From assembly GCA_021404905.1 (NCBI GenBank), contig QWHN01000001.1:194162-258161 (forward strand): DNA of 64,000 nucleotides, in the 5' to 3' direction. Positions within the stretch are counted from its first letter, which is position 1, and the number at the start of each line of letters is the position of its first letter. The translations under genes were made by a program, and so were the position numbers. This document shows, in pieces, positions 2,237-57,065 of the stretch. The notes below the pieces were generated by a model. The model made no database searches, was not told where the DNA came from, and was given only the letters and a program-made list of their open reading frames with translations. Source of the stretch: Candidatus Saccharibacteria bacterium CPR2. Lineage in GTDB: Bacteria; Patescibacteriota; Saccharimonadia; Saccharimonadales; QWHN01.

Positions 2237-4114
2237 TTATGGTAATTTTTCATAGGTTTCATATAATTTTGTAGGCAACTGTATCTTGTCGCTACCTTGT
2301 CTAAATAACGCCTGGTTTTCTGAAGGGCAACTTTCTCGTTTACAGGGTGGCCGCTTTTGTCCGGTGGCGGCATCAATGTGTAAGTGGGCTGAACCGCAGC
2401 CATTGCTTGCGGATCCTACTACGCCAATCTGGTCGCCAGCATTTACAGTTTGACCTTCTGTAACGGTTAGACCGTCAAAGGATAAGTGGAGATAAGACAC
2501 AACTACATCATTCTCTTGATTGTAGACTTCTACTAATCTTCCAGGACACTTATCTTCACCAAAACGCGTAACAGTACCACCTATTGATGCCAAAACTGGG
2601 GTCCCTGGAGTTGCCATAATGTCGTGAGCAGCATATGGATGGCCCCCCTCGCTCATTTTTCCATCTTTAAATTGCCCACCATTTTGAGATTCCATATCTG
2701 CTTTTGTGGTGTCTAGAGGAAACACAAAGTCCCCAGTCCCTACTTGTTGACCACACTCATCAGTAGCGCCTGCTCCCCCAAGCAGAGCCATGATTGTCAT
2801 TGCGCCGGCTTGTTTATTTACTTTTCCCTGAGTGCTACCTGGCTCAGATGCATTGCCTGGCCAAACCATGCCTTCTCCGTCACCCCCAGCATGCTCAGCA
2901 TCATAATAATTCATAGCATATGGTGATGTGTCTGGGTCTTGATTAACCCTCTTGTACATAAATCCTCTATTGTAAGCAACAAAGGCATCGCGCATTTCCT
3001 CAAAACTTGATGTGGCCGTCAATTCAATTCCGTATACCATTTTGGCCATTTCCTTTAAATGTTGTGCTCCGCGCTTATAGTTTTCGGTCTTATCTGTGGG
3101 CCATACATCGTTGCTATCTGGGTTTGATGATCCTAGTGGTTCACCAGAACCAATAGAAGCCCCAGGGTCATTGCCTGCTTCTCTATAATGTAGTGCAGCT
3201 AACATTTGCCATGGTATATTTTCTGCCTCCGCAGCTTCCTGATAATTTGGCTGAAGTTCTTTTATTGTTCCCTCTACTTCACTAAAAAGCTGTTTGCCTT
3301 TATCAGTAACAGAACTTCCGCTGAAATCAGCGGAACCGGCTTGGTTCTCTGGTGTTGTTCCAGCTCCTGGTGAAGGAGTCGCGCCCGGAGTATTTGTAGA
3401 CTGAGTTTTGTTTAGCTCCTCTCTTACCTGGGCCATAAATGTAGCTCCAGGGTCGCTATTACCCGGGTTTGCTTCATAATGACCAAAAACTCCTTTTTTT
3501 CCAGCTCTATCCGCTATATTTTGGATATTATATTTTGCCATTAGTTCTTTCACGACTCCGATTACGGTTTGAAACTGTGTAGGGTTTGAGAGTAGAGCAT
3601 TTTCATCCATGCCCTCAATTTCTATACCAATACTGACATCGTTCCATCCCTGGTCAGCCATAGTTTGCATTGGCCGAGTTTCCAAAGTATTGGTAAGTTG
3701 AAATAACTTTCCAGACGCATTTATAAACAACTGTACCCATCTACCGTTTGGGTAACCTGCTTCAACACGACTCTTTAATACATCAATAAGTTTTGTTGGA
3801 GGATCTCCATAATTATCACCCTGAGTAAAATGGAGCATTATCGCAGTTGGTTTGATCTGTCGCGTTTCTGAAAATGACCCAGTCATTACCTGAGCTTCTT
3901 CCAGAAAGTTTGTGTTTTGCTCATTGGCTGCTTCCGTACTTCCACATTCGTCAATGTCATAAAAATACGTGCCGCCATCATATAGCTTTTTTTGATCTTC
4001 GGACAATACGGCATAAGCAGGGATAGCATTAAAAAATAAGAACCCCAAAGCCACCACTAAAAAAATGACTCGATTTGAATGTTTAAATAAGTTATTCACT
4101 GCCCTGTGCCACAC
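2237..4114 (-). CDS. Secreted multidomain peptidoglycan hydrolase: N-acetylmuramoyl-L-alanine amidase (Amidase_2-like) plus C-terminal M23 (LytM-type) peptidase
   Basis: It has a signal/anchor helix. Amidase_2-like motifs are MLHFTQG, GIEIEG and GHYEANPGNSDPG. M23-like motifs are AAHDI...YLHLS...GSAHLHID. It overlaps the upstream gene by 19 nt. Confidence 0.7.
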   Translation of the reverse strand: MWHRAVNNLFKHSNRVIFLVVALGFLFFNAIPAYAVLSEDQKKLYDGGTYFYDIDECGSTEAANEQNTNFLEEAQVMTGSFSETRQIKPTAIMLHFTQGDNYGDPPTKLIDVLKSRVEAGYPNGRWVQLFINASGKLFQLTNTLETRPMQTMADQGWNDVSIGIEIEGMDENALLSNPTQFQTVIGVVKELMAKYNIQNIADRAGKKGVFGHYEANPGNSDPGATFMAQVREELNKTQSTNTPGATPSPGAGTTPENQAGSADFSGSSVTDKGKQLFSEVEGTIKELQPNYQEAAEAENIPWQMLAALHYREAGNDPGASIGSGEPLGSSNPDSNDVWPTDKTENYKRGAQHLKEMAKMVYGIELTATSSFEEMRDAFVAYNRGFMYKRVNQDPDTSPYAMNYYDAEHAGGDGEGMVWPGNASEPGSTQGKVNKQAGAMTIMALLGGAGATDECGQQVGTGDFVFPLDTTKADMESQNGGQFKDGKMSEGGHPYAAHDIMATPGTPVLASIGGTVTRFGEDKCPGRLVEVYNQENDVVVSYLHLSFDGLTVTEGQTVNAGDQIGVVGSASNGCGSAHLHIDAATGQKRPPCKRESCPSENQALFRQGSDKIQLPTKLYETYEKLP

Positions 4115-29063: not shown

Positions 29064-29155
<92 letters not shown>

Positions 29156-53102: not shown

Positions 53103-54218
53103 CTATTCAGTTATTTTTGTCCCTACCGCCTCAGCCACTGACTTAAAACCATCTTTTTTTAGAAGGTCTGCGATCTCTTTATTAATTACCCCAATCTGGC
53201 CGGGACCCATATATATCATGCCTGTAATCATCTGCACAGCAGAAGCGCCACGCTTTATTTTTTCATAAGCGTCAGCGCCCGAAAAGATGCCACCACAACC
53301 AATGATGATCAATTTTCCCCGATATTTTTCATACAACGCGCTGATTAGTTCATTAGATTTTTTCTCGGTTGGCTTGCCGCTAAAATTACCTTCCCCAGCG
53401 TTTTTTATTTCTTCAGGATCAAATGCCGAGTTGCCCCTATCCTTCGCCAAATTTGAAAGTATAATGCCGCTAATCCACGAATATTTTATTACTATCTCGC
53501 ACAAGGCGATTATCTCCTCGGGCGACTTTTCTAGAGGCATTTTTACAAAAAGCGGCTTTGCAATTTGTTCTTTATTCAAACGAGCAAGGAGTGCTGTGAA
53601 TCCAGCAGGCTCATCAACCCGCTCTGTAAAACTTGCGATATTAATGAGATTAGGACAGCTAATGTTGAGTTCATAATATTGGATATTTTCTGCAATGCGG
53701 ACAAGCGAAAAGCCTGCGGCGATCTCCTCTGTTATTTCGTTGAAGTTTTCATATCGTCGATTCGTGGCGCCAATACTTAACCCAATCGGTATTTCAAAGT
53801 TATTCTTCCCGATTTTCTTAAGAACTGCCTGCATACCAGCACTTTTGAATCCCTTATTCACGAGCAGGGATCGAGATTTCGGTAATCGTCCGAGCATTGG
53901 CCGAGGATTCCCTCTATAAGCGCCAAGGGTGACTGTGCCAATGCTTTGAAAACCAAAGCCGATGCTGGGGGTAATTCGCATAAGATCCGCATCATAATCA
54001 AAGCCGGCCGCAAGGCCAACGGGATTTTTAATTGAAAGACCAGCAAGATTGATGTGCAACGATTTATTGTGATAGGAAAAGAGATGTCCTATAAATTTCC
54101 GAGCAATACCGCTTGATCCAAGCCAGCGTCCAAGCGTGAGTACCATTGCGTGCACCTGATCTGCAGGGAAATTAAATAAGACAGGTTTAATTATTTTGCG
54201 ATAAATGATTCCTGACAT
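53103..54218 (-). CDS. pyrD: Dihydroorotate dehydrogenase, class 2 (quinone)-like
   Basis: I chose the start at MSGIIYRKIIKP, because the ORF-track N-terminus overlaps a tRNA. Motifs are GLAAGFD, NISCPN and IGCGGIFSGADAYEKIKRGAS. Confidence 0.8.
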   Translation of the reverse strand: MSGIIYRKIIKPVLFNFPADQVHAMVLTLGRWLGSSGIARKFIGHLFSYHNKSLHINLAGLSIKNPVGLAAGFDYDADLMRITPSIGFGFQSIGTVTLGAYRGNPRPMLGRLPKSRSLLVNKGFKSAGMQAVLKKIGKNNFEIPIGLSIGATNRRYENFNEITEEIAAGFSLVRIAENIQYYELNISCPNLINIASFTERVDEPAGFTALLARLNKEQIAKPLFVKMPLEKSPEEIIALCEIVIKYSWISGIILSNLAKDRGNSAFDPEEIKNAGEGNFSGKPTEKKSNELISALYEKYRGKLIIIGCGGIFSGADAYEKIKRGASAVQMITGMIYMGPGQIGVINKEIADLLKKDGFKSVAEAVGTKITE

Positions 54219-54234
54219 GTAATTATTTCCTAAC

Positions 54235-54326
54235 TGGCGGAGAGGGTGGGATTTGAACCCACGGTACCTAATGAAAGGCACAACGGTTTTCGAGACCGTC
54301 CAGTTAAGCCACTCCTGCACCTCTCC
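54235..54326 (-). tRNA. tRNA-Ser(CGA), CCA encoded
   Basis: The reverse complement reads GGAGAGGTGCAGGAGTGG...ACGGT-CTCGAAA-ACCGT...long variable arm...GGGTTCAAATCCC...CCTCTCCGCCA. Confidence 0.9.
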
Positions 54327-54370
54327 GTATATAGAACATTTTAATACTTTTTAGGATCCGCTGCAGATAT

Positions 54371-54393
54371 AACAAAACCACCCTCTAGGGTGG
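54371..54393 (-). terminator. Intrinsic terminator downstream of the tRNA-Arg/GIY-YIG unit
   Basis: On the minus strand the sequence reads CCACCC-taga-GGGTGG followed by TTTTGTT. Confidence 0.55.
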
Positions 54394-54399
54394 CAATAA

Positions 54400-54417
54400 T
54401 GGCGTACCCGGCAGGAT
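54400..54417 (-). other. Orphan copy of the tRNA-Arg 3' end (18 nt, including CCA)
   Basis: tggcgtacccggcaggat is identical to 54582-54599, the acceptor 3' strand plus part of the T-arm of tRNA-Arg. Confidence 0.85.
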
Positions 54418-54581
54418 ATCGGCCTCATTTTTTCGGCCTCCTTCGTTTGCTCGCAAAAATATACAAGTGCATTTTTGCTTCGCTACACTTCGCCGAACCT
54501 GGTGCTATGCACCGCAGGTTCGAATCTTCTTATTAACAAGTTTTAAAGTAAATAATAAAAGAGTATCTAGCGAGTATCACC

Positions 54582-54658
54582 TGGCGTACCCGGCAGGATT
54601 CGAACCTGCGGCCTCTGGCTCCGCAAGCCAACGCTCTATCCAGCTGAGCTACGGGTAC
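54582..54658 (-). tRNA. tRNA-Arg(GCG), CCA encoded
   Basis: The reverse complement reads GTACCCGTAGCTCAGCTGGATAGAGCG-TTGGC-TTGCGGA-GCCAG...GCAGGTTCGAATCCTGC-CGGGTAC-G-CCA. Confidence 0.88.
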
Positions 54659-54931
54659 TTATGTATCAACTGATTTAATATAACCATCTTTAATGATTTT
54701 CTCAATGAAATCTTTGCGTTTCCAAGACTTAAGCTTATTTTCTAACTTTCTAGCTATTTTAATACTTGAAAATTCTTGACTAAATTTCAAAATGCATTCA
54801 TCTCCTAAACGAACAGTGCTTGGAGTATAGCCAGATCTGTGTTGCTTAATTCTTCTTGCTAAATCAATTGTGCTACCAATGTAATATTTATCTGACTTTG
54901 GAAAGTAAAGTATATATACAAATGCGTTCAT
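54659..54931 (-). CDS. GIY-YIG nuclease-family protein (small, URI-domain only)
   Basis: The N-terminus MNAFVYILYFPKSDKYYIGSTIDLARRIKQH carries the GIY...YIG...R motifs. The stop codon abuts nt 1 of tRNA-Arg. Confidence 0.85.
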   Translation of the reverse strand: MNAFVYILYFPKSDKYYIGSTIDLARRIKQHRSGYTPSTVRLGDECILKFSQEFSSIKIARKLENKLKSWKRKDFIEKIIKDGYIKSVDT

Positions 54932-54994
54932 ATCCAGCTCCGACGTTATCAGTCGGAGTCCCGATTGTAAACATCGGGACTGAGCTACGGGTAC
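54931..54994 (-). other. Interrupted copy of the tRNA-Arg 5' end: nt 1-15, a 42-nt insert forming two hairpins, then nt 16-22
   Basis: On the minus strand: GTACCCGTAGCTCAG + TCCCGATgtttacaATCGGGA + CTCCGACtgataacGTCGGAG + CTGGATA. The last A is the first base of the GIY-YIG ATG start. Confidence 0.85.
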
Positions 54995-55151
54995 AAATGA
55001 AAACCGTCGCTAACCGTCCCGCTAAATGCGGGACAGTTAGGCAACACATTGAGTAAAAGGAGCTTTCCAAAATTTTGATTTTTGGAACAGGGGTCACTAT
55101 AACACACTTCTACTAGCAAAACAAAGTGGAAAACTTGGATTGATAAAACAG

Positions 55152-55913
55152 TTAAAAACGTATTTGGCGAGCCAGCCTGTCTATAAAATCAGGCTCTTTA
55201 TCTTCGTGTGGCAGTTGCAAACTTAGAATGTTAATTATTTGATCTTTATGAGCAGGATCAAAATATATAGAAATTCCTGGCATAAATCGTTTCAGCGGCA
55301 AAAATTCTATACTCTCAATACCCCCATCATGAAGAATGTTAAAAGATCTAAATTGATCAAAACGATAATTTTTATTGCCGATTGATAGCCCTTCTGGAGT
55401 AATTGAATATTGTAGAACTTCCGGTTTACGTTGAGCATAGACAATAACAGTCACAGCCATCAAAATAACGACCATAGCTGCCCAAATATCAACTACGAAG
55501 TAAAGAGCAACGGCAAATATTATTGCAATCAGACTTAAAATTGCAAACCACCCGACACCTTTTTGATGATGAACATATTCAGAAGCCTCCCATGTGATTG
55601 TATTCTCTCCCTTTGATCCGTGAGCAATATCAACATGAGACTGGCCACGTACATTTTGGAGTTCATGACGTTGGGTTTCAGATTGATGAGAACCTAGGTC
55701 TTTGTTTGTCTCTTTATTTTGCTCTTTCTCATTTTCAATATTTTCTCGTGGTAAATCTTCTTTCCTGCTTTCATTAACTTGACTTAAAGAACTAGGTTCC
55801 GGAGAAACCACTACTGTTTCCTGGTTTGGTTGTATAGTTTGTCCTGGAGTAAATTGACTTACTGACTCATCTGAATTTGCCTGATCTGATAATTCATTTG
55901 TCTCATTACTCAT
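55152..55913 (-). CDS. Hypothetical membrane protein: acidic low-complexity N-terminus, two TM helices, small C-terminal domain
   Basis: 253-aa ORF with a TM pair (WFAILSLIAIIFAVALYFVV and WAAMVVILMAVTVIVY). Confidence 0.5.
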   Translation of the reverse strand: MSNETNELSDQANSDESVSQFTPGQTIQPNQETVVVSPEPSSLSQVNESRKEDLPRENIENEKEQNKETNKDLGSHQSETQRHELQNVRGQSHVDIAHGSKGENTITWEASEYVHHQKGVGWFAILSLIAIIFAVALYFVVDIWAAMVVILMAVTVIVYAQRKPEVLQYSITPEGLSIGNKNYRFDQFRSFNILHDGGIESIEFLPLKRFMPGISIYFDPAHKDQIINILSLQLPHEDKEPDFIDRLARQIRF

Positions 55914-56066
55914 ATTACAGACCAGTATACCCCATAAAACATATTAAAAAAACATAAGGAATATACTAAAACTTGGTCGCCTCGATTATCGAACCTATGT
56001 GTTCGAATCTTTCTCTTTCCATCAAAAGAGAAACGGCTGCACATAAACGTGCGACCGCCTCTCTCT

Positions 56067-56156
56067 TGGCGGAGAGGCAGGGATTCGAACCCTGGGTGCC
56101 ATTGCTGGCACACCGGTTTTCAAGACCGGCTCCTTAAACCGCTCGGACACCTCTCC
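56067..56156 (-). tRNA. tRNA-Ser(TGA), CCA encoded
   Basis: The reverse complement reads GGAGAGGTGTCCGAGCGG...CCGGT-CTTGAAA-ACCGG...GGGTTCGAATCCC...CCTCTCCGCCA. Confidence 0.9.
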
Positions 56157-56264
56157 TCATCTAAAGTGTATAGTATTTACAGATTGTAATTCAACAATAA
56201 TTCCCTCTTGGGTAAATAACAAACTTGTCTTACAATCTATAAGACCATAGATTATGGGCGTAAA

Positions 56265-56357
56265 GGAGAGGTACCCAAGAGGCTGAAGGGGACGGTTTGC
56301 TAAATCGTTAGTCCCGAGCAATCGGGAGCGAGGGTTCGAATCCCTCCCTCTCCGCCA
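56265..56357 (+). tRNA. tRNA-Ser(GCT), CCA encoded
   Basis: The sequence reads GGAGAGGTACCCAAGAGG...ACGGT-TTGCTAA-ATCGT...long variable arm...GGGTTCGAATCCC...CCTCTCCGCCA. Confidence 0.9.
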
Positions 56358-56410
56358 TCCTACTTCACCAAGGCTACGGATGGCAATTTGACTCAAAATT
56401 TTAACTTATC

Positions 56411-56456
56411 CACTGTCAATTGCCTAATTTCCAATTCCCAGTTGCTATTTCCAAGC
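56411..56456. repeat. Heptamer array, copy E9, one arm only
   Basis: The units read cactgtc aattgcc taatttc caattcc cagttgc tatttcc, between tRNA-Ser(GCT) and the convergent gene. Confidence 0.7.
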
Positions 56457-56459
56457 TTT

Positions 56460-57065
56460 TTATCTAAAAACCCTTAATCTAAGCATGAAAAGCCGGGCTA
56501 AAATTACAAAACAATGCATTGCCAGCATGAGTAGGAATGTAAATAACCCAAAATACAAAGCTATTTGCCAGTAGGGCGACGTTAAAGCCCAATCACTGAG
56601 TGTATTCACAATGGTGGGGTAAATGAATTGCACGAAAAACAAGGCGTAAAAAATACTTAAAAGCACGATGGCCGCTCTAAATCCAAGCCTGGCACCGTAC
56701 GCAACCCAATGATCTGACTGATGAAATGACCTTGGGTGGTTAAACACCAAAGCAATATTGACTTCATTTGCCAGATCACGTATTACCCCAGTTATTAACC
56801 ATATGACTATATAAATTACAGCTCCACCAGCACTCCAAAAAGCCACTGTAGTTACTACATCGACATTGCGAGTTGATTCCAGCTGGTTTAGAAATTGTTG
56901 CCACTGATAGCTGAATATGCTAGATTGAGCTTCAATGATAGACGGATTTATGAGTCCTTTGAATACCGAAGTTGAAGCACCTATTACTAATAAAAAAGCA
57001 CTTATGAAAAAATAAATAATTAACTCGAGTCTTGTTGGTAATAAAAACAAAATAAAGCGATTCAT
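56460..57065 (-). CDS. Hypothetical polytopic membrane protein
   Basis: 201 aa with about five hydrophobic helices. No motif recognised. Confidence 0.5.
   Translation of the reverse strand: MNRFILFLLPTRLELIIYFFISAFLLVIGASTSVFKGLINPSIIEAQSSIFSYQWQQFLNQLESTRNVDVVTTVAFWSAGGAVIYIVIWLITGVIRDLANEVNIALVFNHPRSFHQSDHWVAYGARLGFRAAIVLLSIFYALFFVQFIYPTIVNTLSDWALTSPYWQIALYFGLFTFLLMLAMHCFVILARLFMLRLRVFR

Follow-up and report, generated by a model that had tools for sequence, protein, structure and literature searches.

Background

SegB, a free-standing GIY-YIG homing endonuclease, is encoded in the tRNA gene cluster of bacteriophage T4; its recognition site includes the conserved tRNA T-loop motif, and its cleavage drives the inheritance of segB together with the neighbouring tRNA genes, which replace those of the recipient (PMC2330249). 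In the Candidate Phyla Radiation (CPR), GIY-YIG open reading frames (ORFs) have been reported in rRNA genes, within insertions that are neither group I nor group II introns and that lie at the tops or bases of stem-loops (PMC11270868), while group I introns have been reported in tRNA genes of Patescibacteria in a paper that does not mention the arrangement seen here (PMC13011429). Mobile G+C-rich double-hairpin elements have been described in the mitochondrial DNA (mtDNA) of Allomyces, according to the passage of PMC3787672 that cites Paquin et al. 2000. Here we analyze a 64,000-nt stretch (64 kb, hereafter the window) of a contig from Candidatus Saccharibacteria bacterium CPR2, in which a 90-aa GIY-YIG nuclease gene, preceded by a pair of hairpins, stands between a 5' fragment and a complete copy of a tRNA-Arg(GCG) gene, with a 3' fragment of the same tRNA farther downstream. 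We propose that this assembly is probably a homing-type mobile cassette, aimed at the D-loop of tRNA genes and replacing the gene that it breaks, with a mechanism that we infer from sequence comparisons.

The GIY-YIG proteins of known structure 1zg2 and 1ywl belong to the prokaryotic Slx1-like branch, and the homing enzymes come from the UvrC-like branch (PMC1564403). The only role predicted for the prokaryotic homologs of Slx1 is one in repair, and the branch has been treated as non-selfish (PMC1564403). Our literature search revealed no account of a GIY-YIG gene joined to a tRNA gene, none of the hairpins reported below, and no paper tying the UPF0213 proteins, to which 1zg2 and 1ywl belong, to tRNA genes or to mobility.

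A split tRNA-Arg gene and its uninterrupted counterpart

As a route to an empty site, homologs of the poorly conserved 253-aa protein encoded upstream of the locus were searched, which identified contig L102 from a sister lineage. Its ortholog of the upstream gene (61% identical) precedes, in this order, a terminator hairpin and leader as in the window, a tRNA-Arg(GCG) gene without any interruption, the downstream terminator known from the window and tRNA-Ser(CGA). The neighbours match as well: tRNA-Ser(GCT) and tRNA-Ser(TGA) lie to one side, tRNA-Ser(CGA) to the other. The left flank with nt 1-15 of the tRNA is identical to that of the window at 95 of 104 positions, and the nt 60-77 fragment with the right flank at 63 of 75; at its tRNA-Arg gene L102 has neither the ORF nor the fragments nor the hairpins, and the five loci examined as empty sites (L102-L106) contain zero hairpins. 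Since the same flanks surround an intact tRNA-Arg gene in L102, the outer fragments in the window are the ends of the resident gene, and positions 54418-54979, judged by this alignment, are a 562-nt insertion that splits it (Table 1). The resident sequence replaced by the insertion would be nt 23-59, or nt 16-59 if CTGGATA arrived with the insert. All CPR2 contigs obtained by look-ups of the GIY-YIG protein and of the 253-aa upstream protein are filled and near-identical (0-1 single-nucleotide polymorphism), and the filled/empty polymorphism that characterizes a homing endonuclease gene was thus found between lineages only. Synteny around pyrD was uninformative as another test for an empty site, as the seven orthologous pyrD loci of other Patescibacteria have no nearby tRNA-Arg gene.

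The initial annotation of this region, made without database searches, had listed the tRNA fragments, the 42-nt pair of hairpins, the ORF, the complete tRNA, the spacer, the terminator and a GGAG ahead of the ORF, all of which are present where it had placed them. It had also read the duplicated tRNA ends as the scar of a mobile insertion at a tRNA target and had pointed to related genomes as the place to look for an empty site; the uninterrupted tRNA-Arg(GCG) gene between the same flanks in L102 is such a site and lends support to this reading. The fragment identities, on which the argument had been made to depend, go beyond chance: exact 15- and 18-mers shared with the 77-nt tRNA within ~600 nt have a chance expectation of ~1e-4 by our estimate, and the longest other matches to tRNA-Arg elsewhere in the window, those in T-loops set aside, span 9-11 nt.

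The sole ORF of the 562-nt insert is the GIY-YIG gene, and it does not encode a tyrosine or serine recombinase. No HUH (Y1) transposase is encoded in the insertion, whose only protein is the GIY-YIG nuclease; the wider genome was not searched for a transposase acting in trans. At the RNA level, the outer fragments could be read as the exons of a tRNA that is split or contains an intron, with hairpins, ORF and inner tRNA cut out of the transcript. Such a reading is scarcely credible, as nt 23-59 are missing from the outer gene, which encloses a complete tRNA, and the hairpin-bearing copies found elsewhere are mostly 5'-truncated or have mismatched acceptor halves. The Rfam search (E <= 1) of positions 53500-57000 and of five related loci revealed no intron or ribozyme, but only tRNAs and antisense-tRNA artefacts. 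The particular case of a group I or group II intron in a tRNA gene was rejected on the same two grounds, i.e. the missing nt 23-59 and the lack of a match to any intron family.

Table 1. Features of the split tRNA-Arg(GCG) locus. Coordinates are positions in the 64-kb window; all features lie on the minus strand.
Feature	Position	Strand	Basis or remark
Terminator hairpin of the upstream (253-aa) gene	55010-55040	-	Native 5' flank of resident tRNA-Arg; orthologous flank in L102
15-nt leader	54995-55009	-	Native 5' flank of resident tRNA-Arg, after the terminator hairpin
Outer 5' fragment, resident tRNA-Arg(GCG) nt 1-15	54980-54994	-	Exact 15-mer on native 5' flank; family-wide equivalent
Double-hairpin element, 42 nt, between tRNA nt 15 and 16 (D-loop)	54938-54979	-	Sequence, fold, family conservation
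Hairpin 1 (TCCCGAT/ATCGGGA), perfect 7-bp stem, 7-nt loop	54959-54979	-	
Hairpin 2 (CTCCGAC/GTCGGAG), perfect 7-bp stem, 7-nt loop	54938-54958	-	
tRNA nt 16-22 (CTGGATA), D-loop continuation	54931-54937	-	Final A is first base of ATG
90-aa GIY-YIG nuclease ORF	54659-54931	-	Pfam PF01541; TAA stop abuts tRNA nt 1
Promoter-like site TTGAGA-17 nt-TATATT	54677-54705	-	Within the last codons of the ORF
Complete inner tRNA-Arg(GCG), CCA encoded	54582-54658	-	ARAGORN; Rfam tRNA, 69 bits
164-nt spacer in insertion	54418-54581	-	Near-palindrome and inverted tRNA piece
Near-palindrome in spacer	54494-54522	-	Left arm with exact reverse complement of tRNA nt 48-62 (54512-54526)
Outer 3' fragment, resident tRNA-Arg nt 60-77 incl. 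CCA	54400-54417	-	Exact 18-mer; native terminator next
Native intrinsic terminator of resident tRNA-Arg, hairpin 54377-54394 and T run	54368-54394	-	Terminator scan, fold; ortholog in L102

Several further features of the neighbourhood were noted. The window contains four tRNA-Ser genes (CGA, 54235-54326; TGA, 56067-56156; GCT, 56265-56357; GGA, 29064-29155), three of which are arranged around the tRNA-Arg locus in an order shared with L102; none of the four has hairpins or a nuclease gene. Rfam matches to Plastid-psbl-rps4 and Plastid-ycf2 (54238-54291, 56070-56121, 56300-56354) score below the gathering threshold and are antisense images of tRNA genes. The mechanically called ORF of dihydroorotate dehydrogenase (53103-54320) begins at a GTG within tRNA-Ser(CGA), and its true start is most likely the ATG at 54215. 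A 27-codon mini-ORF, MRPISCRVRHYCHPRGWFCYICSGS (54342-54428, minus strand), has AGGAGG with an 8-nt spacer before its start and crosses the outer 3' fragment and the terminator; it is probably a chance ORF or a relic. L102 encodes, at 1143-2720, a 525-aa protein that joins LexA DNA-binding, peptidase S24 and DNA methylase domains.

A minimal Slx1-like nuclease

The 90-aa protein matches PF01541 with 55 bits (cut-off 22.6, E = 8.6e-15) and no further Pfam domain. Five residues (Y6, Y17, R27, H31 and E64) are invariant across 36 homologs, and the AlphaFold2 (AF2) model (pLDDT, the predicted local distance difference test, 88.4) exhibits the GIY-YIG fold, a sheet of three strands with helices at its flanks, with the topology beta-beta-alpha-alpha-beta-alpha-alpha. 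The profile search of the PDB identified 1zg2 (5e-12), 1ywl (1.5e-8), Slx1 (9e-5) and I-TevI (1e-3); by profile and by fold the closest solved relatives are the UPF0213 proteins BH0048 and EF2693, followed by Slx1 and then by I-TevI. The Foldseek analysis of the AF2 model returned UPF0213, Slx1, I-TevI and UvrC GIY-YIG domains, with the same ranking as in the profile search. On the evidence of profiles and of the predicted structure, the nuclease is a minimal domain of the Slx1-like/UPF0213 branch and not of the I-TevI/Seg type: with 90 aa in all, it has no C-terminal DNA-binding region with the NUMOD or helix-turn-helix modules that distinguish the latter. Matches to homing-endonuclease models are confined to the N-terminus, namely residues 3-33 for TIGR01453, a model of group-I-intron endonucleases (23 bits against a cut-off of 56), and residues 1-34 for the homing endonucleases of PHROG. 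The UPF0213 alignment covers profile positions 1-72 only, and the final 16 residues (DFIEKIIKDGYIK) are peculiar to the tRNA-linked family. The median ratio of nonsynonymous to synonymous substitution rates (dN/dS) in the family is 0.165, which indicates purifying selection and, together with the invariance of the catalytic residues, a presumably active nuclease.

The close homologs comprise 68 proteins of 85-92 aa, and those with a named source come almost all from Patescibacteria, with one from Omnitrophica; the profile search retrieved 1,912 cluster representatives at E <= 1e-10. Many database entries (P0003, P0040, P0055 and others) carry false N-terminal extensions of 25-60 residues that run through the hairpins and the tRNA fragment, and false C-terminal tails such as GAHSSVVRAGDS are the translated downstream tRNA. 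A phage origin was considered and rejected, as the search of viral contigs revealed only six weak matches, confined to the N-terminal motif and without an adjoining tRNA. Membership in a defence system was likewise rejected, the PADLOC matches being marginal and partial only.

Linkage to tRNA genes across the family

A metagenome scan in which loci were selected by the protein motif alone yielded 80 loci, and the downstream sequence was assessed in the 75 of them in which it extends more than 60 nt beyond the ORF. In all of these 75 a tRNA on the same strand, or a hairpin-bearing 5' fragment of a tRNA followed by a tRNA, begins at the end of the ORF, and in 67 the tRNA starts between -45 and +30 nt from that end. 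Twenty-nine loci share an offset of -10 or -11, which makes the stop codon of the ORF identical to U8-A9-G10 of the tRNA itself, and the acceptor stem then codes for the final two or three residues of the nuclease. The abutting tRNAs are those for Arg, Thr, Pro, Val, Met, Ile, Phe, Asn, Lys, His and Ala, and none among these loci is specific for Ser, Leu, Tyr, Glu, Gln, Asp, Cys, Trp or Gly.

Most ORFs are preceded by a second copy of the 5' end of the same tRNA, which is interrupted by hairpins. In one class (16 loci including the window) the copy is broken after nt 15 and resumes behind the hairpins with nt 16 to ~25, and in another (19 loci) it is broken after nt 10-12 and the hairpins are followed by CTCAG. 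The upstream repeat begins exactly at nt 1 of the tRNA; in 39 of 43 loci it extends 0-2 nt beyond that point, and this holds also at loci with a gap between ORF and tRNA. A target-site duplication by staggered cuts was therefore rejected, the start of the repeat being fixed at tRNA nt 1 whatever lies between ORF and tRNA, and homology between the old and the new gene is a better explanation than a fixed stagger. Relics occur too, i.e. a truncated ORF in L022 and ORF-less hairpin modules before tRNAs in L044, L054 and L077/78.

Some individual loci show further peculiarities. The ORF-less modules in L054 (855-927) and L044 (3220-3336) lie between the ORF and the functional tRNA and consist of tRNA nt 1-10 or 1-15, hairpins, the next D-arm bases and 15-26 nt of spacer; in both, the spacer ends in ACAT, which with nt 1 (G) of the tRNA forms an ATG, followed by two codons and the TAG of the tRNA. 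L017 (191-372) has a second, outermost 5' fragment of tRNA-Arg (nt 1-11) behind a -10-like box, TGATAAAAT, ~170 nt away from the nt 1-15 fragment, and two such spaced fragments suggest two successive insertions at one gene. L017 (1941-2177) and L081 (2634-2753) each contain one more GIY-YIG match, which is divergent (30-42% identity) and ~1.2-2 kb away from the copy next to the tRNA. Tandem copies of 5'-truncated, hairpin-bearing tRNAs stand directly 3' of the functional tRNA in L042 (3339-3526) and L070 (3322-3660); the L042 contig ends within its array, which may be an assembly artefact.

The inner tRNA and the right junction

Three loci, L069, L079 and L088, retain both ends of the split outer gene. 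The outer acceptor halves pair with each other (GCCCTTG/TGAGGGC in L069, GCCTAGA/TCTAGGC in L088 and CCGCTCG/CGAGCGG in L079) and differ from the inner tRNA, which is self-consistent. As outer halves that match each other and not the inner tRNA imply that the cassette imports its own tRNA, the inner tRNA of these loci can be assigned, from its sequence, to the cargo; by extension from them, the inner tRNA-Arg of the window, the functional copy, is probably cargo of the insertion. Their right junction is marked by a second hairpin element, with a few D-arm bases before it, so that the complete layout reads: old nt 1-15, then hairpins, nt 16-25', ORF, new tRNA, spacer, nt 7-15' and hairpins, then old nt 16-77. 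A right-hand remnant is not detectable in ~60% of the loci. In the window and in L059, L083 and L086 the right junction lies in the T-loop, after a spacer of 162-183 nt with an inverted T-arm piece. Two explanations of the spacer were tried and rejected: it does not align with the missing middle of the old tRNA, as expected if that had decayed, with scores above those of shuffled sequences, save for the exact inverted 15-mer, and it is not a shared mobile element, since only L059 and L083 have sequence in common (51 nt at 80%).

These loci also bear on the possibility of two unrelated events, in which hairpins and ORF came in by a 5' insertion that duplicated nt 1-15, the copy of nt 60-77 arose by a distinct 3' insertion of ~164 nt, as at the attachment site of an integrase-type element, and the complete tRNA is the resident gene. 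The inner and outer sequences of the window are identical, and cargo and resident cannot be told apart there; the 3' layout recurs in L059, L083 and L086 with the partly shared spacers just mentioned, and an 18-nt 3'-terminal repeat beginning in the T-loop is typical of tRNA attachment sites. This scenario is nevertheless highly improbable, as the insertion holds no integrase gene, most loci have no 3' repeat of any kind, and in L069, L079 and L088 the inner tRNA differs from the split outer gene.

Three suggestions of the initial annotation can be revisited at this point. The concern that the GIY-YIG protein might be an unrelated housekeeping paralog is dispelled by its linkage to tRNA genes in every related locus examined. 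The statement that the insertion restores its tRNA target holds insofar as a functional tRNA is present, but this tRNA was most likely brought in as cargo and is not the resident gene restored. The break in the D-loop and the embedded hairpins had been regarded as atypical; they indeed follow no classic intron or 3'-end pattern, but they represent the conserved signature of a whole family and not an anomaly.

Hairpin elements

Folded as RNA, the 42-nt hairpin insert of the window has a predicted stability of -21.1 kcal/mol (z = -5.6), which none of 200 shuffled sequences equalled. The GGAG in hairpin 2 lies 6 nt upstream of the ATG of the ORF. The hairpin motif does not occur in the 64-kb window outside the locus. 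A census of strict hairpins over 293 kb of family loci identified 201, of which 177 lie no more than 150 nt from the cassette (124 on the upstream side of the ORF and 53 on the downstream side of the tRNA), against a background of 1 hairpin in 85 kb of unrelated loci of Patescibacteria; the hairpins are therefore part of the element. Their core, CCGAC...GTCGG, is conserved, and when CGAC...GTCG alone served as the seed, the next C-G pair was still near-invariant. At the outer pairs 2 and 3, 168 and 163 of 196 hairpins, respectively, show Watson-Crick pairing (means for shuffled sequences 77 and 71), with 3-4 types of pairs, and the eighth position is unpaired. Thus, as deduced from this covariation, the stem is 7 bp long, its inner half being conserved and its outer half covarying.

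Hairpins nest inside one another's loops, and single hairpins are found in degraded copies of tRNAs, at the D, anticodon and T regions (both in L033, L047, L070, L074 and L079). In L074 (~3340-3640) a tRNA-Val(TAC)-like copy 3' of the functional tRNA carries three double-hairpin insertions, one each in the D, anticodon and T regions. The notion that hairpins are removable inserts in otherwise intact tRNAs was rejected: excision of the clusters in silico produced only 5 extra tRNA calls, all with mismatched acceptor halves or odd junctions.

The behaviour of the hairpins could also be taken to mean that the element is a hairpin-ended transposon, in which the double hairpins are the ends that move and the Slx1-like nuclease recognizes their structure and acts on them as transposase or nickase. 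Hairpin units would then insert alone in the loops of tRNA genes, and the ORF and tRNA would move as a composite between two of them, as might be read from the near-identical hairpin elements on both sides of the ORF-tRNA pair in L046, L069 and L088 and from the solo hairpins at many positions of pseudo-tRNAs, nested in loops, in the five loci listed above. The two hairpins of the window can cross-pair as one long hairpin, and after UPF0213 the closest solved relatives of the protein are structure-specific nucleases, the Slx1 enzymes. We consider such a transposon unlikely, however, as the window and ~60% of the loci have only the left hairpin element, the tRNA-like bases are inside the hairpin elements and not outside, unlike in a simple terminal-repeat transposon, and hairpins are almost absent away from these tRNA loci. 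Moreover, we know of no GIY-YIG transposase.

A promoter-like site in the last codons of the ORF

With a score of 10/12, TTGAGA-17 nt-TATATT ranks first among the promoter-like sites in a scan of 2.5 kb; it is formed by the codons for I-E-K-I-I-K-D-G-Y-I and ends 18 nt before nt 1 of the inner tRNA. A -35-like hexamer TTGA(A/G)A was found in 41 of 68 loci, and both hexamers in 24 of 68. The Ile codon that supplies the TT is ATT in 50 of 68 loci, compared to 180 of 419 Ile codons elsewhere (p = 3e-6), and the distances from the -10-like hexamer to tRNA nt 1 cluster at 5-8 nt and 13-26 nt. These codon and spacing data suggest that the end of the ORF doubles as the promoter of the cargo tRNA, which is proposed as the reason why the ORF always abuts the tRNA. 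If this is true, a peptide motif that is at the same time a promoter-like site would be a clean case of overlap between protein and transcription signals.

Proposed mechanism and its weak points

The homing-type cassette that we consider probable would spread like a free-standing homing endonuclease gene. The nuclease would cut an uninterrupted tRNA gene in the D-loop region, after nt 15 in the class of the window and after nt 10 in the second class, and the break would be repaired by copying the cassette-bearing allele, with the conserved D-arm sequences that flank the cassette serving as homology. Re-annealing at the D arm of the inner tRNA would reuse the 3' part of the resident gene, and re-annealing further to the right would import the whole tRNA and displace the old 3' part downstream. 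The double hairpin would prevent the left-over 5' fragment from acting as a target and may be a structure that the Slx1-like enzyme binds or cuts. The nuclease would probably be expressed from the upstream signals of the resident tRNA, and the inner tRNA from the promoter-like site, by read-through, or both. The resident gene would thus be destroyed and the cargo tRNA would substitute for it, so that the host could lose the cassette only by precise recombination. A bolder and, in our opinion, doubtful proposal is that the cassette represents a new class of bacterial mobile element, with a minimal Slx1-like nuclease that acts on DNA structure (double hairpins, loops of tRNA genes) instead of a long recognition sequence, inserts in D-loops, becomes indispensable by destroying the resident tRNA gene and supplying the sole working tRNA, and carries the promoter of the latter in its own last codons.

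Several points weigh against homing. No sequence analyzed here indicates the position of the cut, and the D arm of the inner tRNA is intact; an endonuclease that simply recognized the D arm would cleave the very cassette that encodes it. The model does not explain the right junction of the window, with its break in the T-loop, its 164-nt spacer and its inverted T-arm piece. The protein is Slx1-like and, at 90 aa, has no DNA-binding domain, whereas the known GIY-YIG homing enzymes derive from the UvrC-like branch (PMC1564403). ORFs that are 80% identical are fused in frame to different tRNAs (Thr in L029, Phe in L036), which calls for a postulated step that remakes the junction. As the polymorphism is seen only between lineages, a precise two-step loss in the lineage of L102 is a formal alternative to insertion. 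Finally, strong purifying selection and fixation would fit a domesticated function too.

Such a domesticated host factor would act beside tRNA genes, either in the maintenance or recombination of the locus or on the tRNA or its precursor, and the fragments would be by-products of local duplication. Apart from dN/dS values of 0.1-0.2 and an arrangement that is fixed in the sampled population, it could be argued that the close coupling of ORF and tRNA implies co-expression, and that prokaryotic Slx1-like proteins are usually seen as cellular repair factors, one of them being fused to a TrmH-type tRNA G18 methyltransferase (PMC1564403). We regard domestication as quite improbable, given that the sister lineage has no ORF at this locus, that the ORF family is patchily distributed and found at about a dozen tRNA identities, that the resident gene has been destroyed and replaced, and that ORF-less and truncated relics exist.

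If the homing-type cassette is real, it differs from introns and inteins in that it does not splice itself out, and from integrative elements in that it does not stop at restoring a gene end but brings a whole replacement for the essential gene that it breaks. The genomes of Patescibacteria are reduced and their tRNA genes are probably mostly single-copy, hence the cassette would be hard to lose. It would also provide the first concrete biological context for a large Slx1-like/UPF0213 subfamily. For annotation, the practical consequences are that gene callers extend the ORFs through the hairpins into the tRNAs, that tRNA finders report the inner gene only, and that the tRNA fragments can break assemblies.

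Comparison with known systems

The cassette is neither a member of the I-TevI/Seg family nor an intron nor an integrase element, yet it shares some features with each of several described systems. SegB of T4 is likewise encoded by a GIY-YIG nuclease gene among tRNA genes and offers a precedent for the recognition of a tRNA motif and for the inheritance of tRNA genes (PMC2330249). It is, however, encoded by a phage, belongs to the I-TevI/Seg type and has a DNA-binding part, whereas the enzyme of the window is a 90-aa Slx1-like domain encoded on a bacterial chromosome, and SegB shows no fusion to the 5' end of a tRNA, no hairpin elements and no split resident tRNA. The minimal GIY-YIG proteins of UPF0213 (1zg2, 1ywl) are the best match in sequence and fold, with the same size and no auxiliary domain, but they lack the family-specific C-terminal 16 residues. 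The insertions in rRNA genes of the CPR, compared here by their description, come from the same phylum and also place a GIY-YIG ORF in a structural RNA gene outside any intron, although PMC11270868 mentions neither hairpins nor tRNA.

The integrative elements that target tRNA genes, whose 3' end they restore, resemble the cassette in their target, in the duplicated terminal segment that flanks the insert and in the functional tRNA that is kept, but here there is no integrase, the main junction is on the 5' side in the D-loop, and the insert is 562 nt long. The mobile ORFs of fungal mitochondria, of which atp6-ORF360 is reportedly a case, resemble it in that an endonuclease ORF enters a gene together with a substitute gene part, while the resident part remains as a remnant. 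In Allomyces mtDNA short double hairpins are reportedly tied to such insertions. The mitochondrial ORFs reside in an organelle and target protein-coding genes, whereas here the target is a tRNA gene, the substitute may be a whole tRNA, and the hairpins share a fixed CCGAC/GTCGG core.

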